Positions 12,682 through 23,509 are shown, counted from the first letter of the stretch. The stretch: DNA of 28,734 bases from Synechococcus sp. (GCA_051439605.1 JBFRWN010000121.1:1-28734); one strand, 5' to 3'. Notes: generated by a model not told the origin, from the letters alone. Numbers and translations: made by a program.

Positions 12682-13061
12682 TCAGTCTAAGTCTTCTCCA
12701 AACATGATGCGGTGACCGTCGATGGTGCGAACAGCAAACTCGCGCATTCCCCAGGGCTCGTCCGCTAAAGGCTTGATGATGTCAGCCCCGCGTTCGCTCA
12801 CCCAAGCACAGTAGTCCGTGACGTTGTCTACCAACATGTAGGCGAAATAGGAATGATCCCCTAACTCGGCGGCAGGAGTGGCATCTGGGCAGTGACCCGC
12901 CAATTATCTTTGACAAAAAATCTCCACCCAGGGTCGCCGATTTCCCGGATATCGAAACCTAAAACATCTCGGTAATAGTTGGCCGAGCTTGCCAAGTCCA
13001 AAACTGCAAGGACGTAGCGGGCTTGTTCGATCCGAGCTTTTGGTACTGAATCTTCAGGCAT
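12682..13061 (-). pseudogene. VOC/glyoxalase family gene, frameshifted near 12903
   Basis: The 5' frame (YVLAVLDLASSANYYRDVLGF...GWRFFVKDN) and the 3' frame (AGHCPDA...DEPWGMREFAVRTIDGHRIMFGE) are two halves of one VOC domain. GGAG RBS before 13061. Confidence 0.75.
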
Positions 13062-13238
13062 TTAACTCTCCGACATGACATCCCCGGACAACGAAGTACT
13101 CAGGCATCCCCCTGCGATCGGAGAATTTCCTCAAACTGAATGGCATCATCCCCCGACAAATCGATGCGATCACCAGCCTTTTTGACGCTCATGTCGGTAC
13201 TTTTGCAGAAGAAAACCAAGAGTTTCCCCCCCCTCTCG

Positions 13239-13436
13239 TTAGGCGTAATTCCGCTCGGCACCATCGCTGCCGAAGATATAGTCTCCCGACGGAATCCAGA
13301 CAAATTCTCCACTTGCCTCCCATTGGGGGCGATTGAGGACTAGCTCTGAGGCTTGCAATGGCGTGAGGGGGGTGAGGAGAATAATCCCCCAAGTTCCCAA
13401 GATAGAAGAGAGAACGGCGATCGCAATTCGAACCAT
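13239..13436 (-). pseudogene. Truncated secreted SUMF1/FGE-sulfatase-family gene remnant
   Basis: Signal-peptide-like start, then FVWIPSGDYIFGSDGAERNYA*, which resembles the conserved first motif (xxIPxGxFxMGS) of FGE-sulfatase domains and stops immediately. Confidence 0.5.
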
Positions 13437-13543
13437 GGTGGATGAAGTAACTGAAGGAGCAAGTCTATTCTCGTCTGAACAACCGAAGCCCAACATCTTC
13501 AGGCTGCACGGTAAACTCAGATGGCGTCATTTCGGCACGATCC

Positions 13544-14182
13544 TTGGGAATTGAACTTCGCAGCTACGTTTATATAGATAGCCTTCAACCACAACATGCC
13601 GCCTATATGGGAACCGTTTCCGTTGGTTTTTTGCCCCTCCCTGGCGATTCTTCCCTCTGGATCGAAATTTCACCCGGGATCGAAATCAACCGCATTACCG
13701 ATGTAGCCATGAAGGCAGCAGTAGTCCGTCCGGGGGTGCAGATGGTGGAACGGCTCTACGGTTTGCTGGAAATCCATGCCAGCAGCCAAGCTGAAGTCAG
13801 AGTGGCGGGGCAAGCCATCTTGGATACCCTCGGCGTTCGTCGCCAAGATTGTTTCAAACCCCAATTAATTTCTAGCCAAATTATTCGCAACGTCGATCCG
13901 CAGCACGCTCAAATGGTTAACCGAACCCGCAGGGGCAACATGCTACTTGCCGGGCAATCTTTGTACGTAATGGAGGTGGTTCCGGCCGCCTACGCTGCAC
14001 TAGCGGCTAACGAGGCGGAAAAAGCAGCATCCATCAACATTTTGCAGGTGTCAGCGGTGGGCAGTTTTGGACGCCTGTATTTAGGGGGGCCCGAACGAGA
14101 AATCGTAGCAGCGTCTCGGGCTACTGTGGCTGCCATTGAGGGTCAGACCGGTCGGCTATCGAGCGATCGCCAAGTGGAATAA
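13544..14182 (+). CDS. ccmP: Beta-carboxysome shell BMC-T protein CcmP
   Basis: [20 protein letters not shown]...GFLPLPGD...AANEAEKAA...GSFGRLYL, a tandem BMC domain; TTG start. Confidence 0.9.
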
Positions 14183-14293
14183 ACCTGCTTTAGCAATCTT
14201 TCTAGCTTTGGAAAACTCGTCTACTCTCCAGCAAATTCGCTGCAGCCCCCTGATTCTTGTTACCTTCGGTATAACGGATAACTGGAGATCCGT

Positions 14294-15130
14294 ATGACGA
14301 CAGCCCGACAGAACAGCTCCCAACGACGCAATCTCCGCGTCGTTAAAGAGTTTGGTGCTCGCGGGGACTCATCGCACCAACAGGGTTCTCGCGATAATCG
14401 CGGCGTGAACTTGCGGGGGGCTGACCTGCGGGGGGGAGACTTTACTAGGGCCGACCTGAGGGGAGCAAATTTATCAGGGGCAATCCTATCTGGGGTCAGC
14501 CTAGAGAAAGCCGATTTGACTGGTGCAGACTTGACTGCAGCAAATCTGGATGAGGCCAACCTGAAGAGCGCCATCCTAACCGGCACTTGCTTGCAGCAAA
14601 CTCGCCTGAGAGAGGCGGATCTAACCTTAGCCAATTTCGAACAAGCCAATTTGGTGGATGCCAACCTCAGCTACGCGAACGCAGTTGGGGCAAAATTTAC
14701 GGCGGCGCTTCTGCGAGATGCTGACTTCAGTCAGGCTAACGGGATAGGGGCTACCTTTGCTGGAGCAGATTTGCGGCAGGCAGATTTGAGTTGGGCTAAT
14801 TTACAGCGGGCGGATTTCAATAACGCTGATTTGATTTCGGCGATCTTATGCCAAGCAAATTTAAGTCGGGCCAACCTGTTTGAATCAGAACTGGCAGGGG
14901 CCGATCTGCACAGCGCTAATTTAGCGCGGGCCAATTTAGCCCATTCCCATCTGCTGGGAGCCTGTCTGTTTGCGGCCAATCTATTCCTAGCGGATCTGTT
15001 TGCGGCTGACTTGACTGGAGCTGATTTGCGTCGAGCAAACTGCGATCGCAGCAATATGGAACAGGTGATTTTGACTGACGCCAAGCTGAAACGAGCCAGT
15101 ACAGTGGATGTAACGGGGCTTTGTAACTGA
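14294..15130 (+). CDS. Pentapeptide repeat protein
   Basis: Long run of A(D/N)Lxx repeats over most of the 278 aa. Confidence 0.93.
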   Translation: MTTARQNSSQRRNLRVVKEFGARGDSSHQQGSRDNRGVNLRGADLRGGDFTRADLRGANLSGAILSGVSLEKADLTGADLTAANLDEANLKSAILTGTCLQQTRLREADLTLANFEQANLVDANLSYANAVGAKFTAALLRDADFSQANGIGATFAGADLRQADLSWANLQRADFNNADLISAILCQANLSRANLFESELAGADLHSANLARANLAHSHLLGACLFAANLFLADLFAADLTGADLRRANCDRSNMEQVILTDAKLKRASTVDVTGLCN

Positions 15131-15490
15131 CCAGAAGATTAAGAGTTTTGAGAACTTCTAGGCCCACAATTTTCGGAAAAGCTGTTGCTGTACGTACTTT
15201 TTGCAGACTATTGAAATCAACGATCGTGCTTTTGTCTGCAGACGAGAGAAATCGATTGCTTTTCCCTTACTTTTGTAAATAAATTTGTAGGAAGGTGCTT
15301 GAGAAGATTGCGTTCTATGAATGAAATCTTTGTATTATTTGATGAAGATTTAGCAAGTTTGGGTTGCCTTATTTGTTCGAAATTCTCTGCTGAATCGATC
15401 TCTCTAAAATAGAGGCATAGAAGGGGTTGATGGTACGTGTCCATTCCCTTTTGCTCTTATCGAATATTGACTCTCTAGTGGAGTTTCATC

Positions 15491-16588
15491 ATGAGTACAA
15501 CTTTTAGACGTCGGGGGTTATTTCCCGGCGATATTACATGGTCAGGATTAAGTGACTGGATTTCTAGTACCAACAGTCGAATTTTTATCGGTTGGTTTGG
15601 AGTACTGGCGATTCCCACCCTGATGGTGGCCAGCATTTGTTTTATATTCGCGTATATCAGTGCCCCTGGGGTGGATGTAGATGGCATCCGCGAGCCAGTA
15701 CTGGGATCGCTGATAGATGGCAACAATCTGATTAGTGCGGCGGTGGTGCCCACCTCTGCGGCGATTGGATTGCACTTTTACCCGTTATGGGAAGCCGCTT
15801 CCATTGAGGAATGGCTGTATAACGGTGGACCTTACCAGCTCATCGTGTTCCATTTTTTAATTGGCATCTTTGCCTTTATGGGCCGCCAGTGGGAATTGTC
15901 TTACCGGCTAGGCATGCGCCCCTGGATTCCTCTAGCCTTCTCAGCCCCGGTAGCTGCTGCCACCGCCGTTCTGCTGATTTACCCCATTGGCCAAGGGAGT
16001 TTTTCTGAAGGGCTGCCCTTAGGGATTGCTGGGACTTTTCACTTCATGTTGGCGTTTCAGGCGGATCACAACGTGCTCATGCACCCTTTACACATGGCAG
16101 GGGTGATTGGGGTTTACGGAGGAGCGCTATTGTCGGTGGTTCATGGTTCGCTAGTGACCTCTTCCCTGATTCGCGAAACCACTGCTGACGAATCAATTTT
16201 GGCCGGCTATCGTTTCGGGCAACCCAACGAAACGTACAATTTAATGGCGGGCCATTACGGCTATCTGGGCCGGACGTTATTCCGCGGCACGGGACTTTCT
16301 AATAAGCGCACCATCCACGCATTTTTGGCAATATTCCCCGTCATGGGAATTTGGCTGGCGGCAGCTGGGGTGTCGGTGATGGCGTTTAACTTGAACGGGT
16401 TTAACTTCAACGGATCGGTGCTAGACAGCAGCGGCAGAACGATCGGTACCGATGCCGATATTCTCAACCGTGCCAGCTTGGGCATCCAGGTCATGCATGC
16501 CCCTAATGCCCATCACTTTCCACACGTGCTTGCTGGTGGAGGAGTCGCTCCGGTCAGTCTTTCGGCTCCAGCTATTGAATGGTCTTAA
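15491..16588 (+). CDS. psbA: Atypical ('rogue', group 2-like) Photosystem II D1 protein
   Basis: Clear D1 fold ([37 protein letters not shown]). Mn-cluster ligands altered: D170E, E189D, E333A, D342V. YZ161, H190, H198, H215, H272, H332, H337 and A344 retained. Confidence 0.95.
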
Positions 16589-16688
16589 ATAGTAGGCTCT
16601 GAATATAGTTGACCCTGTATAGAGTTCTCTCGGTTTCGCTTGACTTTGGGGTCAAACTAGTCCGGATTGCAAGCAGCTTCTGAACAAA

Positions 16689-16732
16689 AGCGATCGCCAG
16701 ATGTTGAGGTCTCTCTCCATTTGGCGATCGCT
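16689..16732 (-). terminator. Long hairpin built from two HIP1 sites, probable terminator of the minus-strand cluster
   Basis: agcgatcgccagatg (16689-16703) / catttggcgatcgct (16718-16732). On the minus strand it is followed by a T-rich tract, and it lies between convergent genes. Confidence 0.55.
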
Positions 16733-16790
16733 ATTTGGAATGGCGGATTTCAAGTCTATTAGGGCAGTCATGCAATGGTATAACTGCCAT

Positions 16791-17273
16791 TTAAAATAGT
16801 TGACGGACTTGGCGGTTGAACCGAAATCGTTCAACCCCTTCCCGAAATCTTTGAGCTTCCAATCGCCGTCTGGATCGCCTGGACCGTCTGGCAACTGTTT
16901 CGTAACGATCTCGATATGCGGAGCGAGAAACATCCCTTCTGAAAGGATCCTGGAAGGGTTGTTGGTAGGGTACGCGAGCCAAATTCACTTGTTGCAGCCT
17001 AGCCCGAGAATTGCGAGGGGGAGCTGCGTTAACATCTCGCTCCTGTGCTCGAGAACTGCGGGAGCGAGCCAAATTCACTTGTTGCCTCCGAGCTTGAGTG
17101 AGAGTGCGGGAGCGAGCCGAGTCAACTTGTTGCTCTTGAGCTTGAGTGAGAGTGCGGGAGCGAGCCGAGTCAACTTGTCCCTGAGCTTCTCGGGAACTGA
17201 TGAGAGAAAAGAAAGAGAGACTAAGGGCGACGATCGCTATCCTCGAGATCGCAGGGGGAGGATTGGCTAACAT
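16791..17273 (-). CDS. Secreted Arg-rich tandem-repeat hypothetical protein
   Basis: Signal-like RIAIVALSLSFFSLISSREAQG; repeats QV(D/N)(S/L)ARSR...; 34 Arg and no Lys in 160 aa by manual count. Confidence 0.65.
   Translation of the reverse strand: MLANPPPAISRIAIVALSLSFFSLISSREAQGQVDSARSRTLTQAQEQQVDSARSRTLTQARRQQVNLARSRSSRAQERDVNAAPPRNSRARLQQVNLARVPYQQPFQDPFRRDVSRSAYRDRYETVARRSRRSRRRLEAQRFREGVERFRFNRQVRQLF
16974..17178. repeat. In-frame 48-bp tandem repeat (about 2.5 copies) plus degenerate 45-bp units
   Basis: Identical 41-mers at 17090-17130 and 17138-17178; gcgagccaaattcacttgttgc at 16974 and 17064. Confidence 0.9.
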
Positions 17274-17533
17274 AGGGCTCTGTTATCGAAAACATAGTTC
17301 CTTTATAACCATCACAACACCATTTAACACAAGCATCAATAGCCATCTTGAACCTCTGGAGCTGCTCTCAATCTCCGATATGTCTATGCAGTGACATGCA
17401 GATCCACTGCTAAAGGGATCTCGCCTATAGAGGCTATTCTCCTAGTGATGACGGATGATGCTTTTCCCCATGCAGGTTCTGGATCGCTGCAAAGTACTGC
17501 TCGACTGGATGGTCGTCACAGCAAACAGACGGG

Positions 17534-18163
17534 CTAATCGATGGATATCGCAATCCCTGAAGTCCAACTTCCTCCAGATCTAGACTGTTGCTGCTGCATC
17601 AAAACTTGCCTCGCTCCAACCACTCGGCCATTACCGCTGAAGTAGGGACGGCTTCCTTTCTCTGCTTCCACCAGAGCAATCTGTAGCTGAGCAGAGCCTT
17701 GTCCAGACATGGAGATGCTGTTATTTCCCCGTCGCAGATACGAATTTAAGCGCAAACTCACTATCCGGTTCAGATTGGCTACAGATTGACCGTTGATCTT
17801 GACATTACCGTTGCCGCTACCCGATACCAGCAAGAGATAGTCGGCTCTGGAGAGGTGAGCGTAGGGAATACTGCTGGAGCTACTAATACTGCTTGATCTG
17901 CTGGAACTACTAGAGGAGCTAAACGAGGAAAAGGACTGTGTATAAGAGCGATCGCCATTTTCGCCAGACACGCCAGCATCTCCGGTATGGGTATCTACTA
18001 AAACGCGGTTGTTTGAAGGGCGATTTTGCACAGACAAAGAGTCGGTCACCACGGTAACCGATCCGTCCGCTCCCGTGCGCACGATAACCCCAGCCCATAC
18101 GCCACAACAGCCCAGCACTGCCGCCCCTAGGGCGATCGCTCCAATGCGTAATGGTCCGAACAT
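17534..18163 (-). CDS. Secreted hypothetical protein with poly-Ser linker and C-terminal beta-sandwich-like domain
   Basis: AGGAG RBS; signal peptide ending VWA; SSFSSSSSSSRSSSISSSSS linker; VKINGQSV...LNSYLRRGNNSISM jelly-roll-like motif. Confidence 0.8.
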   Translation of the reverse strand: MFGPLRIGAIALGAAVLGCCGVWAGVIVRTGADGSVTVVTDSLSVQNRPSNNRVLVDTHTGDAGVSGENGDRSYTQSFSSFSSSSSSSRSSSISSSSSIPYAHLSRADYLLLVSGSGNGNVKINGQSVANLNRIVSLRLNSYLRRGNNSISMSGQGSAQLQIALVEAEKGSRPYFSGNGRVVGARQVLMQQQQSRSGGSWTSGIAISID

Positions 18164-18396
18164 GAGCTGTCTCCTATCTGCACTTGTGGGATTGATTGGG
18201 CATTCTCAACACACCAATACCGAAACACCCATCGGCACCATCACATCTCTCCACCACTCCTCCAATTTGTCACACTCATTTCCCTTCACTCATGGGAAAT
18301 TATCGATGTGGCCACTTCGGTTAGGACAGTAAAGTCTATACCTAGTCAAAGCTCCGGGTCGCTGAAATGTCCGAAGCGACTTGACAGTCGCTATAA

Positions 18397-18852
18397 CTAG
18401 CGGTGCCTGTTGTTCCTCCGCCACCCGCCGTTAGAGCCTCTGCCTCGATTTCCAAGGTTGATGTCCACCGACTGATTTTGCACCAACTGTTGGTTGAGCT
18501 CTGCGGATTGAGCCCCTCCACCTCCCCCAGAGGACAGCTGGGTTTGGTTGCCCACCACCGCTCCGGACTGGTTTTGGTTCACCTGAATGCGATCCCGCCA
18601 CCGATTGCCCCTGGCACCGCTGATGTTAACCGTCTGATTTTGAATTAACTGCTGATCGAGCCGTTGAGATTGGGAACCGCTGCCCCCAGCAGATATCTGG
18701 GTTTGGTTGCCCACCACCACGCCTGACTGGTTCTGTTCCACCTGAATAATGACGGGCCGCCTTCCCCCTCGACGATGCTGCGGGCCAGCTTCTGCCTCCG
18801 CACAGATCGCCATAGACATCAGTAGCACCGCCAGAGCTACTTGAACTTTCAT
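18397..18852 (-). CDS. Secreted Q/N/G-rich protein with two ~42-aa repeats (candidate amyloid subunit)
   Basis: MKVQVALAVLLMSMAICAEAEA signal; repeats IQVEQNQSGVVVGNQTQI...LDQQLIQNQTVNI and IQVNQNQSGAVVGNQTQL...LNQQLVQNQSVDI. Confidence 0.85.
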   Translation of the reverse strand: MKVQVALAVLLMSMAICAEAEAGPQHRRGGRRPVIIQVEQNQSGVVVGNQTQISAGGSGSQSQRLDQQLIQNQTVNISGARGNRWRDRIQVNQNQSGAVVGNQTQLSSGGGGGAQSAELNQQLVQNQSVDINLGNRGRGSNGGWRRNNRHR

Positions 18853-19085
18853 CTCACTATCCAAAACTGTTTGTAAGCAGACTGACAGTCATCAGAACAA
18901 TTCATTCAGCCAAAACCCTTTTGGGCACCAAGCTGCTGTCCCCATTGACTGGCAATCTACAAGATGGGCTCTGAGACCCAAATGCGGAGGGCTAGGCCAC
19001 CTAGAGGAGGACGGCGATCGCGGTAGGGTGTCCCCCCGCGGCGATCGCTATTTCGTACATCCTCTGATGGATAAGCCCTGTTGCC

Positions 19086-19463
19086 CTATCTGCGGGCGGG
19101 GCGTATATCGGGTAGGGCCAGTTGCACCTGTTGCCCGTTCTGGACGCCTACTGCGTTTTGGACGGTTGGCGTCACCTCTATGTCATCCTCAATCGGCGTC
19201 TCGCCATTGTGGCGAGGTCCGCGAGGTTGATTGGGCGATCGCACCCTGCCGTTCCGCACTTGGGTTTGGCTCTGGTCTTGGATCAGCACCGCTTCTTGAC
19301 GATCGACGCCATATCCCAACTGCACCTGCTGGGCATTCTGGACGTTGACCGAGTTTTGGACGGTGGGAGAAACGGTGAGTTTGCCCGCCATTGCAGGGCT
19401 ACTGCAGGCGATCGCCCCAGCAGCAACTCCAGCGGTGAATGTTGCGTATCGCAGCCATTTCAT
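19086..19463 (-). CDS. Secreted Q/V/N-rich protein with duplicated 22-aa repeat (candidate amyloid subunit)
   Basis: Start reassigned to MKWLRY (AGGGGG RBS); signal ending PAMA; repeats LTVSPTVQNSVNVQNAQQVQLG / IEVTPTVQNAVGVQNGQQVQLA. Confidence 0.8.
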   Translation of the reverse strand: MKWLRYATFTAGVAAGAIACSSPAMAGKLTVSPTVQNSVNVQNAQQVQLGYGVDRQEAVLIQDQSQTQVRNGRVRSPNQPRGPRHNGETPIEDDIEVTPTVQNAVGVQNGQQVQLALPDIRPARR

Positions 19464-19479
19464 GGCACTGTCCCCCTGC

Positions 19480-19839
19480 TTAGCGTCGACGGGCACGGCG
19501 AACACCGGCCCCTTGGTTGAGTTCGTTGATGTTGACAGAATTTTGCAAAATGTTGGAGTCCGCACCGTAGCCAACACCCTCTTGGGTTTGAACGTTGGTT
19601 TGTACGCCGGTTACTGTTTGCTGCACCGTCTCGCGGCGACCCCGGCGACCTCGGTAGCCTGTTTGTTGGTCGAGGGTTTGTATATTGGTGCTGTTTTGCA
19701 AGATGTCGCCATCCCCTTCCGCATACTGATATTGGTCAGATTGTTGGATGCCCGTGACTGTCTGGTTCACTTGAGCCATTACAGGTGCACCCAAACCGAA
19801 TGCCATCAGGGAGCCAATTGCCAGTGACTTGATGAACAT
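19480..19839 (-). CDS. Secreted Q/N/T-rich protein with two ~36-aa repeats (candidate amyloid subunit)
   Basis: MFIKSLAIGSLMAFGLGAPVMA signal; repeats VNQTVTGIQQSDQYQ...ILQNSTNIQTLDQ / VQQTVTGVQTNVQTQ...ILQNSVNINELNQ. Confidence 0.85.
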   Translation of the reverse strand: MFIKSLAIGSLMAFGLGAPVMAQVNQTVTGIQQSDQYQYAEGDGDILQNSTNIQTLDQQTGYRGRRGRRETVQQTVTGVQTNVQTQEGVGYGADSNILQNSVNINELNQGAGVRRARRR

Positions 19840-20157
19840 GAAACTTAAGCCCGAAACAACTATGAGCACAGCTTATTCCCTAGGCAGAGGGGTGCGATAC
19901 AAGGCTACGCGTACTGTCATTCGCTGCTGTTGGAATAGATTGCATCCACTGCTCGAAACTTGAGTTTGGGCTAGGCGAATGCGGAATTGCGCGAGGCTGC
20001 ATTCGAAAGTGAGCAGATGGACTGTTGGCCTAGAGAAGTGGGATGAGAAGAGGATTGTTTGTCGAACAAGTTCATTAGGGATGTGGCCATCGTAATTAGC
20101 CCAACAATATATGCCCAGTCTGGGTTTTATCGCGACCGTCTAGTTGCTGAAGACATT

Positions 20158-21507
20158 TCATCGCTCGTCTAAGCGATGCGCAGCGAGTCGTCGGTATACT
20201 GTCGCCAAAGCCTCGCGATCGCCTACGTTGCCTGGAAACAGCACCACAGGCAGATTGGGAAACTCAAGGTGTTCGGCTGGGGTACGAACCACCGAACAAC
20301 CGGCCAAAATTTGCCCCAATAGCCGTGCTGTCCGCAACATCAGTCCCTTGCTGAGCACGTCGTTAGAGGTAATCCCTCCCTTGCTAATCAGGAAGCCGAT
20401 ATTTTCTGGCAATCCGTGCACGATATCCATCAGAAAACTAGACACCTGTGCGCCAAAATCCAGCCGCGTTTGGACATCCTCGAAAGTCAACTCGTCTCGG
20501 CTGGTGTACACCACCGGGGTTTTACCGACTGTATAAGCCCCTCGCACTGCCGTCAGGACCTCGTTCAATAACTCTTTACGGTTGATGGCTAGCCCTGTCT
20601 GCAAATCCTCCAGCAGTCGTGAAACATCCACCTCCACCCCCGCAACCCCGGGCTCTTGCAATAGCCGCTCCAGTTGTTGGGTGGTCTTTTGGACGTGGGA
20701 GCCCACAATGGCTACACCGGGGTTGCCGTCGCGGACGTACTTTGACATGTCCTCCCCAGCCACCGGCTGGGGAGGCAGCGCTGCCAAGGATGTCAACACG
20801 CTGGCCGCGCTACGAAATAAAAACTTTTTCCCGTTAGAGACGGCGGCGAGTACATCCCGAGCGAACCTATCTAGGTCTTCTTGGGTTTCACCATCTACCA
20901 CCACGCATTGGTTATCCTGGAGCCCAATCAGGCGATCGCTAACCCCCCGGCGCAAATCCTCCAGAAGAATGCGCTCGACATCATCCGCCGCAATCTTCCC
21001 CCTAGTTTTCTCCGCCACGTAATCAGGCAGATAGCTATAGCTGTAGGCAAACACGGAATCATCAGCAAACTCTGTTTCGTGTACCGGAACTGCTAACCCA
21101 TCCGACATTAGGTAATGGATACTATCGCGGGTGAATCGACCCCCTTCGAAAAAAGCTGGCACCAAAAAGTGGGCGTCAAAGGGGCCCAACTCTGTGGCAA
21201 TCACATCAGTTTCGATGGGGTAATGCCCCCGTAACGTGGAGTCAGAGCGGCTCACCACCAAGTAATCTTCAATGCCCTCGACCGCGATCGCCTCTTTCAA
21301 GCGGACGCACACATCGCGGGTCACGGCTGCCGCTTGTCCCGGGGTGAGCGATCGCGTGTTGGTCAATATAAAAAAGATGGGGGATTCGTCCCGCAACCCC
21401 ATTCTCAAAGTTTCTACATCCCATCGCATCAGCAGCAAGCAACCGTGTACTGTTTGGGACCCGGTGGGGTCGTCATCCAAGACAACAATCTTAGGTTGAG
21501 AATTCAT
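20158..21507 (-). CDS. Four-carbon acid sugar kinase family protein (DUF1537)
   Basis: IVVLDDDPTGSQTV, RSDSTLRGH, LISKGGITS, VLFPGNVG. Confidence 0.92.
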   Translation of the reverse strand: MNSQPKIVVLDDDPTGSQTVHGCLLLMRWDVETLRMGLRDESPIFFILTNTRSLTPGQAAAVTRDVCVRLKEAIAVEGIEDYLVVSRSDSTLRGHYPIETDVIATELGPFDAHFLVPAFFEGGRFTRDSIHYLMSDGLAVPVHETEFADDSVFAYSYSYLPDYVAEKTRGKIAADDVERILLEDLRRGVSDRLIGLQDNQCVVVDGETQEDLDRFARDVLAAVSNGKKFLFRSAASVLTSLAALPPQPVAGEDMSKYVRDGNPGVAIVGSHVQKTTQQLERLLQEPGVAGVEVDVSRLLEDLQTGLAINRKELLNEVLTAVRGAYTVGKTPVVYTSRDELTFEDVQTRLDFGAQVSSFLMDIVHGLPENIGFLISKGGITSNDVLSKGLMLRTARLLGQILAGCSVVRTPAEHLEFPNLPVVLFPGNVGDREALATVYRRLAAHRLDER

Positions 21508-21686
21508 GGTGCTTGCCTGTAGAGGATGAGAGTATGAGCTTTCTCACAGTGATTGTAGGGGCAGGACTCCAAGGGAGGGAGACCGCCGAAAAATTTGTCC
21601 GAGACTCGGACATCCTGGCAATTCCATACATCAAGCAAAGTGGTCTGCCGTGCAGCACCCAGAAAAAGGAGAGTTCCTACTGCGTT

Positions 21687-23063
21687 CTAGAAGGTGTTGT
21701 CTGGTTTCAGCGAAGCGGCTTGATTGGGTTCCAAAGATTCGGGATACCAGTAGGTGGCCCAATCTCGACCAACTTTCACCGTAATGTCTGATGAAATCTC
21801 CCCCGTAGATTCCACCTTCACCTCTCCGACACCGATTAATGCCTGAACTTCAGACGCCGCTTTGGCATCCCCTTGCTGGGCAATAATGGCCGTCTCCTCC
21901 AATACCTTGGAGGCATCCTGAATGACGTAAACGTTGGTAAAGCCACGCTGACGTAGAGTATCGGCCATATTACGACCCATGCGAGGCAACCCGGAGGCGT
22001 TGGTGACGGCCACCCGTTGGTTAACAGGGGACCGATACAGCACCGCCCCAAAGGCAGGATCGGCATTGAAATAACTTACTGCTACTCGATACGTTTCTGC
22101 CCGATCGACAATCCAAAAGCTGACAGGGTACTCGTTAGCACCGCTAAATCGGCCAGGGAGCATGACCAGATTCAGGCTATCGCTACGGGACTTGAAGGCA
22201 AACTGCGACAGGGACAGCAGCTCGTCTAGGGTCATATTGGTATCGACGTTATCCCGGATGGTCTGCACGATATCTGGCAACCGCAAGAGGGTGCGTGGCC
22301 GCAGTGCCTGCTCGCTCACCGCCCGTATCATCTGCTGCTGCCGCTGTACGCGCCCAATATCACCGAGTTCGTCCTGGCGAAAGCGCAGAAAATGATGGGC
22401 TTCCTCACCCGATAGCCGTTGTACTCCTGGTTCTAAGTCGATTTCCAGTGCTTGAGTGCGATCGACATATTTCATAGGACTGGGAACGTCAATCTCTACG
22501 CCACCCAGCACGTCAATTAATTCTGCGATGCCGTTGGTGTTCAGACGAACGTAGCGATCGATGGGCACATCCCCCAATAACTCGCTGACCACCTCTGCTG
22601 CTAGGGCTGGGCCACCAATGGCGTTGGCTACGTTGACCTTGGTAATGCCGCTTTCGGGAATGCGCACGCGGGTATCCCGCGGAATAGACAGGACATTAAT
22701 GGATTCCTGCTCGTGGTTCACGCGCACCAACAGCATGGTGTCGCTGCGTCCCCTTAAGGTTTCCGAGAATGTCAGTTCGCTGTTGGTTGGGTCGGGATTG
22801 TCGGTACCCAGCACCAAGATGTTAAGGGATTTGTCCAGTTGAGCTGCCCGCAGCTCGTCATTCCGAAAGACGTCAGCTTCTTCTTCCCCTAAATCTTCAG
22901 CAGGAAGTAAGGGTTTAGAGAGCACAAAGGCAAACATCGCTCCCCCCACCGCCGCCACAAACAGACTAGAGCCGACGGTTACGATCAGCAACCACCGTAG
23001 GAGATTTCCCGATTGCTCAGGCCTCCTGAGGGACCGTGAGGCACGAAATGTTTGTACGCGCAT
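21687..23063 (-). CDS. LytR-CpsA-Psr (LCP) family protein with LytR_C domain
   Basis: Single TM; NILVLGTD, GRSDTMLL, LSIPRDTRV, FLRFRQDELGDIGRVQRQQ; C-terminal VAVTNASG...DITVKVGRDW. Confidence 0.93.
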   Translation of the reverse strand: MRVQTFRASRSLRRPEQSGNLLRWLLIVTVGSSLFVAAVGGAMFAFVLSKPLLPAEDLGEEEADVFRNDELRAAQLDKSLNILVLGTDNPDPTNSELTFSETLRGRSDTMLLVRVNHEQESINVLSIPRDTRVRIPESGITKVNVANAIGGPALAAEVVSELLGDVPIDRYVRLNTNGIAELIDVLGGVEIDVPSPMKYVDRTQALEIDLEPGVQRLSGEEAHHFLRFRQDELGDIGRVQRQQQMIRAVSEQALRPRTLLRLPDIVQTIRDNVDTNMTLDELLSLSQFAFKSRSDSLNLVMLPGRFSGANEYPVSFWIVDRAETYRVAVSYFNADPAFGAVLYRSPVNQRVAVTNASGLPRMGRNMADTLRQRGFTNVYVIQDASKVLEETAIIAQQGDAKAASEVQALIGVGEVKVESTGEISSDITVKVGRDWATYWYPESLEPNQAASLKPDNTF

Positions 23064-23509
23064 AAAGTCTAAGGGGTGAGCAAAGCACTAGATCCAAGAA
23101 CCATCCAATGGTCGCGATCGTGCGAGACGTTCGAGTCATCCTAGCGTAGAGGTCAATGCTGGTTCATGCTAGTAACCACCCATTTTTCACCGCCGCCATC
23201 ACACAGTCCAAATAGCAAATTCATCTGAAAATGCCAGAGATGTCGCTATCCAAAATTACAAACATCATACCTAGCAATTGTCTCAGCAGCATAAGCGTTA
23301 TCCGCATTTGCGGCCGCCGCATAGGGTGGCCGAGCGCGCGTGCTTATCCAGCGCAGTCGCGTTTACAAATCCTGACTTCAAGCAGGATAGAGGCGGAAAA
23401 CCCCTCAGGGCGGCTCATTCACCCGGAAGAAGTGGAAGTTGTTGTCCCCCTCTCCCTCACCGCTGTCTGGGATGATATGCCGTAGATCCCCAGGTTTGGA
23501 GAAAGCAAG

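Follow-up and report, generated by a model that had tools for sequence, protein, structure and literature searches.

What might a row of small, apparently exported and glutamine-rich proteins build outside the cytoplasm of a cyanobacterium? The question is raised by a 28,734-nucleotide stretch of Synechococcus sp. DNA (GCA_051439605.1 JBFRWN010000121.1:1-28734), the whole of which is called the window here and in which five open reading frames (ORFs), all on the minus strand, occupy positions 16791-19839. A first-pass annotation had described them as a five-gene cluster of secreted repeat proteins and as a candidate curli/Fap-like functional amyloid system. The ORFs are present at that place, with starts chosen by homolog alignment (A 19839, B 19463, C 18852, D 18163, E 17273), and the surroundings are cyanobacterial, with GCGATCGC sites and with psbA-like, CcmP and pentapeptide-repeat genes as neighbours. 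The five ORFs are as follows.

Gene A, 19480-19839, minus strand: 119 amino acids (aa); putative leader of 22 residues, ending in PVMA; ortholog of Gloeobacter glr1590
Gene B, 19086-19463, minus strand: 125 aa; putative leader ending in PAMA; ortholog of glr1591
Gene C, 18397-18852, minus strand: 151 aa; putative leader ending in AEAEA; two core repeats and an Arg/Gly/Asn-rich tail; Gloeobacter counterpart located between glr1591 and glr1593
Gene D, 17534-18163, minus strand: 209 aa; putative leader ending in GVWA; hairpin-like segment, Ser-rich linker, predicted beta-sandwich; ortholog of glr1593
ORF E, 16791-17273, minus strand: 160 aa; leader-like N-terminus ending in AQG; 25% Arg; 48-nt tandem repeat

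A recurrent four-gene cassette

Proteins A and C were searched in 61 genomes and a profile of B in 401 genomes of the class, G000 included, and relatives were found in six of the 61 genomes for A, in three of the 61 for C and in 16 of the 401 for B. The carriers of the B profile comprise all seven genomes of the family that contains Gloeobacter, all three of another genus, all four of the window's genus and two others. Around each match, 10-13 kb (less at contig ends) were taken and ORFs of at least 60 aa were classified by iterated hidden Markov model search. A and B are adjacent and on the same strand in all 17 loci, which belong to 16 cyanobacterial genomes, mostly Gloeobacterales. A C-type gene comes next in 14 of the 17 loci, is missing from two same-genus genomes and from one genome's second locus, and occurs twice in one genome; a D-type gene closes the row in 14 loci, the misses being two contig ends and one locus with A and B only. 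The conserved unit is A-B-(C)-D. In the window, 233 nt separate B from C, and C from D likewise. Homologs that are not co-located had been named by the first-pass annotation as an observation that would speak against its proposal, and what is found is co-location. One Gloeobacterales metagenome-assembled genome (MAG; G147) holds two A-B loci (L043 5524-6203 and L042 2114-3417), one continuing into C and then reaching the contig end, the other consisting of A and B only and followed by an ORF on the opposite strand.

Nothing corresponding to ORF E was found in the other 16 loci; it is therefore regarded as a lineage-specific neighbour outside the cassette, so that the five-gene unit originally claimed contracts to A-D. 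Its description as a polycationic protein with repeats was accurate (25% Arg, net charge +20, a tandem array with a 48-nt unit at 17057-17178). Weak matches to E occur in two of 30 relatives, both of the same genus and on other contigs (E-values 1.7e-7 and 2.3e-6), and each contains a stop. An equally long ORF runs opposite E at 16800-17270; in the RNA contig that matches E, two of the three differences listed are at third codon positions in the minus frame, which are first positions in the plus frame, a faint hint that the minus-strand frame is the coding one.

In the N-termini of A-E, one or two basic residues precede a hydrophobic stretch, whose Kyte-Doolittle maxima over 12 residues are 1.8-2.7, and a small-x-small site follows; the proposed cleavage motifs (PVMA, PAMA, AEA, VWA, AQG) are all in the sequence. 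In A-D the Ala-x-Ala-type site is a conserved alignment column, just ahead of the first conserved mature residues. Judged by such sequence features and by conservation in family alignments, A-D are likely to be exported via Sec-type leaders. The mature parts are free of Cys, Gln and Asn together make up 24-29% of A-C, and Gln alone makes up 16-18% of mature A, B and C in the window copies, in agreement with the earlier picture of small, Q/N-rich and Cys-free proteins. Enzymatic motifs had not been recognised before, and Pfam returned no family for A-E at E<=1, the sole match (C at 0.62) being a chance one, and NCBIfam at E<=0.1 returned nothing above any cut-off. Against same-genus orthologs, nonsynonymous divergence (pN) of A, B and D is 0.16-0.32 and synonymous divergence (pS) 0.64-0.82, with saturated synonymous sites (for A, 0.16 against 0.69); because pN lies far below pS, A, B and D are regarded as real genes under purifying selection.

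The proteins are also rare. Clustering of 5.77 billion proteins at 90% identity leaves B with seven clusters, and D has ten; searched against 1.84 billion representatives at E<=0.001, the B profile gave seven matches, one of which is a distant two-repeat relative. Another of the seven, the repeat adhesin P0017 (1589 aa), was judged spurious, since the match depends on the short stretch P-x-I-D-G-Q-D-A-V-Q-N-A. When 185,579 species were scanned with a pattern, at one genome each, 11 loci came up, ten of them titled cyanobacteria and one 'uncultured bacterium'; the titles of six name Gloeobacterales or Gloeobacteraceae, and a seventh belongs to Aphanocapsa lilacina, in which the A copy falls into one cluster with that of Gloeobacter. 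A full-text literature search found no mention of glr1590, glr1591, glr1592 or glr1593, and one for Gloeobacter together with functional amyloid found nothing relevant. As far as these searches of sequences and texts reach, A/B/C and D are an undescribed set of protein families with a very narrow distribution.

Glutamine-rich repeats and a possible cross-beta polymer

A, B and C are mutually paralogous (hhalign probabilities of 95.4, 94.7 and 96.6%, the leader making up part of each alignment), as the major and minor subunits of fibres commonly are, and share an architecture of strand-turn-strand repeats of about 40 residues each. A contains two such repeats (V-x-Q-T-x-x-G-V-Q ... E-G-x-G ... 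Q-N-x-V-N-V ... Q), linked and capped by Arg-rich segments. In B a complete repeat, turning at Gly, is connected through a Pro/Arg-rich linker to a repetition of its first strand; repeat 1 holds a VQLG tetrad, with a further predicted strand behind it at residues 61-67, and repeat 2 ends in QVQLALP. The core repeat of C (QNQSG-VVGNQTQ-Gly-rich turn-LxQQLxQNQxV-I-N) is present once in most lineages, twice in the window and two or three times in one relative, and a search with C against its own genome at E<=10 gave no further paralogs. The duplications that had been noted in the repeats are visible at the DNA level, in B as a 52-nt repeat (19118-19169 and 19316-19367, 77% identity, 198 nt apart), in C as a 65-nt direct repeat (18524-18588 and 18683-18747, 159 nt apart) and in E as the array described above; the internal duplication of C is recent, because its two copies are 85% identical.

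In the A, B and C alignments taken together, 28 of the 40 invariant columns are Gln (12 of 15 in A, 11 of 19 in B, five of six in C), as against only one of five in D. The identity of the conserved residues, mostly Gln plus the turn Gly, is the most telling feature of the cassette. The x-Q-x-Q-x alternation claimed for the repeats fared less well: compared with shuffled sequences, QxQ is not enriched in A (2 against 2.7) and marginally so in B (5 against 2.5, reached by a fraction of 0.06 of shuffles) and C (7 against 3.6, a fraction of 0.04), and beta-type hydrophobic periodicity rises above shuffles in B only (z 2.4; A -0.3, C 0.6).

We tentatively read A-B-C-D as a cassette of Sec-exported proteins that may form a Gln-ladder cross-beta (amyloid-like) polymer outside the cytoplasmic membrane, and hold this reading at somewhat less than even confidence. 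A, B and C would leave the cell unfolded and their repeats would then stack in register, each molecule contributing two layers with a flexible charged linker between them, in a HET-s-like manner. The HET-s prion domain is a two-repeat beta-solenoid with repeats of about 21 residues, cytosolic and with a flexible linker, and the likeness to the two pseudo-repeats per chain proposed for A and B is no more than an analogy. B, as the most conserved subunit and the one with a RHIM-like tetrad, could be the templating core, while C, whose repeats number one to three and whose charged tail is lineage-specific, might decorate the polymer or tie it to others. The N-terminal hairpin of D would cap the polymer or dock on it, and its beta-sandwich might anchor the polymer to envelope glycans or restrain premature assembly. 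Both the periplasm and the cell surface are considered as the final location.

This reading draws on the conserved leaders, the synteny of A-D, the paralogy of A, B and C, the Gln-dominated invariant columns and the Cys-free, Q/N-rich composition; on the variable repeat number and the recent duplication in C, since curli subunits vary likewise (PMC3521004, in the part available); on purifying selection and RNA of A; and on three properties of B, namely the tetrad, sub-threshold resemblance to the RIP homotypic interaction motif (RHIM) and a non-globular model with strands at the repeats. The tetrad, [IVL]Q[IVLC]G, occurs in 18 of 19 B members, with two copies in six, and in about 9% of shuffles; in the other families it occurs in 0 of 17 A, three of 15 C and two of 13 D members, against 5-9% of shuffles. 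It lies in a beta-strand with V-Q-N ahead and is flanked by Asn/Gln, and this phi-Q-phi-G core with its flanks is the likeness to RHIM, BASS3 and PP. Pfam RHIM (PF12721) matched three of seven B homologs at 9.8-13.2 bits (E 0.07-0.77), below the gathering threshold of 20 bits. Bacterial RHIM-like motifs with a G-phi-Q-phi-G core are described from cytosolic pairs of Bell-domain proteins and NLRs (Dyrka et al., 10.1101/2020.01.06.895854, in the part available). RHIM, BASS3 and PP are cytosolic and paired with kinases, Bell domains or NLRs, whereas all B members bear export leaders, and no NB-ARC, NACHT or Bell-like family was found among the neighbour ORFs scanned with Pfam, which were the 66 of 126 nearest the cassette. 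B is not a member of the RHIM family and at most works alike. Two automatic names are leads rather than evidence, 'RIP homotypic interaction motif-containing protein' at NCBI for the Gloeobacter B copy (glr1591) and 'Curlin-associated protein' in UniRef for the A copy of Gloeobacter morelensis.

The AlphaFold2 model of the B monomer (19 sequences) has no confident fold (predicted local distance difference test (pLDDT) 49.6, predicted template modelling score (pTM) 0.17) and is drawn with long strands at 29-49, 61-67 and 95-115 and a disordered linker. It fits a subunit that would become ordered only upon assembly, though it is not evidence of a fibre. A monomer that does not fold alone would also suit a finite, ordered, non-amyloid beta-rich hetero-complex of the envelope, in which A, B and C co-fold, perhaps with D, as a sandwich, barrel or spacer. 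The invariable pairing of A with B in 17 of 17 loci, the conservation of B, the best-conserved member of the cassette (65% mean column identity over eight members) and thus suited to a specific hetero-interface, its amphipathic beta periodicity (z 2.4) and the lack of a dedicated fibre-export pore (17 loci; CsgG in the genome) all point the same way. Such a complex would, however, hardly be expected to tolerate a C with zero to three repeats and tails of opposite charge, the invariant residues are mostly Gln instead of a hydrophobic core, and profiles compared with PDB sequences gave no similar fold or family; we consider it somewhat unlikely. A complex prediction for mature A (23-119) with mature B (27-125) gave an interaction prediction score from aligned errors (ipSAE) of 0.03 in both runs, which were made without controls and are evidence neither way.

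Behind the leader of D, a conserved V-x-V-x-T segment, short and hairpin-like, is followed by a Ser-rich linker and, at about 93-209, by the C-terminal beta-sandwich, and AlphaFold2 (13 sequences) models residues 93-209 as a confident beta-sandwich (pLDDT about 90), with leader, hairpin-like segment and linker unconfident, so that the earlier description of a Ser-linker plus beta-sandwich protein holds. In the PDB, Foldseek found nothing similar at E<=0.001. The best hits of a VIA structural scan (Z 5.7), to sandwiches of the glycosidase sugar-binding, carbohydrate-binding module (CBM) or FnIII-like kind, are within noise, and carbohydrate binding by D can be suggested only as a guess. The ESM Atlas returned unnamed cyanobacterial clusters only (0.83-0.88). 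The idea that the N-terminal hairpin of D is a degenerate A/B/C repeat was dropped, the D profile giving about 2% against those of B and C and hence no relation. In G171 the D-type ORF (L045 6562-6870) has 102 aa and lacks most of the beta-sandwich, which may be a frameshift or truncation in this MAG.

The tails of A and C behave differently from the cores. That of C is basic in the window (net charge of C +10), acidic (poly-Asp) in one lineage and of mixed Arg/Asp/Glu type in Gloeobacter. More generally, the C-terminal tails of A and C change charge sign across lineages, the Gln-rich cores being fixed and the tails evolving freely: those of G009 (L012 675-1118 and 1545-1943) are poly-Asp and Asp/Trp-rich, those of Gloeobacter consist of repeated R-F-G-R-D-D-R-F-E-R units (L015 7157-7606, G043), and those of the window are Arg/Gly/Asn-rich. 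It is conceivable that the proteins are largely disordered, secreted and polyelectrolyte-binding matrix components whose Gln/Asn-rich segments and charged tails cross-link or condense polymers of either charge, such as exopolysaccharide, extracellular DNA or peptidoglycan, without any ordered cross-beta core. The Arg-rich tails found here (+10 in C, +20 in E), the acidic or mixed-charge low-complexity tails of other lineages, the low AlphaFold2 confidence for B and the low recognition of C in the ESM Atlas (1677), where it has no usable match, would all agree with this. Yet Gln, Gly and Pro are conserved column by column from Gloeobacterales to distant cyanobacteria, which is unexpected for composition-driven segments, and the tails on which this explanation relies are less conserved than any other part and differ even in the sign of their charge, so that we regard it as distinctly unlikely.

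A further alternative takes the small, exported, Cys-free and cationic proteins of this compact and patchily distributed cassette for bacteriocin-like antimicrobial or signalling peptides, with D as immunity or processing partner, and the publication of self-assembling microcins that promote biofilm can be counted in its favour (PMC13188072, in the part available). The leaders are nevertheless of Sec type instead of double-glycine type, no conserved ABC exporter, peptidase, modification enzyme or immunity-like membrane protein is found among the scanned neighbours, three paralogs keep a fixed order over a very deep divergence, and the C tails are acidic in one lineage. This explanation appears highly improbable.

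To return to the cross-beta polymer, its closest functional comparison is curli. In both systems the proteins are Sec-exported and Cys-poor, with imperfect Gln/Asn/Gly-rich strand-turn-strand repeats, and in both, paralogous subunits stand side by side, one more conserved than the other, with a lineage-variable number of repeats. Both clusters also contain a small beta-sandwich accessory protein, CsgC there and D here, the fold class being common only in general terms; CsgC is not known to have the Ser-rich linker and the N-terminal hairpin of D. The cassette repeats, in contrast, have about 40 residues and number only one to three per protein, as against about 20 residues in curli. The minimal curli repeat is given as X6-Q-X-G-X2-N-X10 (PMC3521004, in the part available), and its short core, Q.G..N, occurs in 0 of 17 A, one of 19 B and eight of 15 C members, a count of the core only and without chance control.

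A number of results weigh against the polymer. Curlin_rpt (PF07012) was found neither in A-E (E<=1) nor in 15 C members (E<=10) nor in the whole genome (E<=1). Comparison with E. coli CsgA/CsgB by hhalign gave 9.3% for A, 1.7% for C and 3.6% for B, the alignments of A and B covering the leaders only and that of C an 8-residue stretch, and the D profile reached 0.3% against E. coli CsgC. CsgG (PF03783) was not found at E<=0.01 in the 99.98%-complete genome, control genomes being positive; the Pfam scan of the 17 loci gave no CsgG, CsgE or CsgF gene, the CsgE and CsgF models not having been searched separately. Since homology to curli was tested and not found, 'curli/Fap-like' can be kept as an analogy only: the repeats do not match the curlin repeat model, in line with what the annotation itself had remarked of the CsgA consensus, and the curli-like system that it proposed is, by these profile comparisons, not curli and at most works like it. 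For Fap, the Pfam scans of A-E and neighbours gave no family, no search having been aimed at Fap and the presence of Fap models in Pfam being unchecked. No pore, secretin, protease or transporter common to all loci was found among the scanned neighbours; likewise the window's neighbours hold no secretion pore gene in the Pfam scan, as had been stated. With no outer-membrane pore gene found in any of the 17 loci, and with CsgG not found, an extracellular location is unsupported.

To the same side belong the absence in A and the weakness in C of amphipathic beta-type periodicity and QxQ enrichment, and the lack of any fibre, cross-beta or beta-solenoid structure among the structure predictions made, where such a structure had been anticipated. 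Profiles of A, B and C against PDB sequences at E<=10 gave nothing for B or C; the single match for A, a clostripain-related protein at E 1.6, was rejected as being at chance level. The window copy of B has no Pfam RHIM match at E<=10, the scores of its homologs stay below the cut-off, and B has Q-phi-Q-phi-G where RHIM, BASS3 and PP share G-phi-Q-phi-G. As to the expression presupposed by the amyloid proposal, two metatranscriptome runs of one study contain contigs identical to A (19511-19808 and 19473-19785, 0 mismatches, two of two runs). Further RNA contigs lie within D (one) and in E (one, covering 16858-17010 with 5 mismatches), and the rest of 13000-23500 is uncovered apart from two short partial matches, contigs being unable to show absence. 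That A is transcribed in nature is a weak hint, and the RNA data are treated as only that because the contigs come from runs of one study chosen for holding this stretch.

Genes and elements around the cassette

The neighbours of the cassette differ between lineages, for which reason it is considered self-contained. In the family containing Gloeobacter, five of seven loci have, immediately upstream of A and in its orientation, a gene for a secreted type I phosphodiesterase / nucleotide pyrophosphatase of about 700 aa:

L015, 3982-6132, same strand as A: Phosphodiest (Pfam)
L036, L038, L044 and L045, same strand as A: Phosphodiest (Pfam)

As for the other two loci of this family, the scan did not include that strand of L041, and in L046 the place is taken by an ABC1 kinase gene; outside the family the upstream Phosphodiest gene was not seen. 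A LuxR-type response regulator is also found upstream in L036, L038 and L044; L015, whose regulator ORF was unscanned, is the only locus with a histidine kinase match. Together with an ABC importer upstream in three related MAGs, the Phosphodiest genes had raised the idea of a phosphate regulon, which was dropped because the ABC genes resemble those for taurine, sulfonate or nitrate and because the lineages do not have these neighbours in common.

In the window itself, a psbA-like gene at 15491-16588 (plus strand) scores 573.9 bits against an NCBIfam psbA cut-off of 596.05. Compared with the canonical D1 motif (MHERNAHNFPLDLA), its C-terminal part appears to lack two Mn-cluster ligands, E333 and D342, and by its sequence the gene resembles a divergent, 'rogue' paralog of D1. 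In other genomes the cassette does not keep this neighbour. Genes A-B-C are flanked by an inverted repeat of 37 nt, complementary at 29 of its positions (18360-18396 and 20127-20163); one arm stands directly after the C stop and includes its own 7-bp hairpin, and the other is at the stop of an upstream sugar-kinase-like gene. The score of this inverted repeat was reached by one of 25 mononucleotide shuffles; a shared terminator-like element is one possible reading of it, chance another. Rfam gave no family on 16500-20200 at E<=1, and a promoter and terminator scan of the locus gave no signal above shuffles.

Possible implications for cyanobacterial amyloids

The only cyanobacterial matrix amyloids with experimental support that we found are EbfG1-3 of Synechococcus elongatus; EbfG1-4 are small secreted paralogs encoded in one operon, and EbfG1-3 give amyloid signals in the C-DAG assay (PMC9981879, in the part available). 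The cassette resembles them in that small secreted cyanobacterial proteins are encoded as several neighbouring paralogs. EbfG proteins are said to have double-glycine leaders and a dedicated transporter, in contrast to the Sec-type Ala-x-Ala leaders and the lack of a linked transporter here. If A-D do build a fibre, it would be a second cyanobacterial system, Sec-dependent and unrelated in sequence to EbfG, and it would put a RHIM-like core into an exported bacterial protein.

It can further be speculated, as an unlikely outcome, that the cassette stands for a class of functional amyloid that is new in bacteria and has no sequence relationship to curli, Fap, TasA or chaplins, in which a templating subunit carries a RHIM-like phi-Q-phi-G core outside the cytoplasm and which has been kept since Gloeobacterales and other cyanobacteria separated and is exported without a dedicated pore. 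The matter is directly testable, because the carriers include the culturable Gloeobacter violaceus PCC 7421 (glr1590-glr1593). The cassette is centred on Gloeobacterales, the earliest-branching cyanobacteria; if the speculation about a new class is true, the RHIM-type cross-beta core would be an ancient structural device and not an invention of eukaryote-style signalling.

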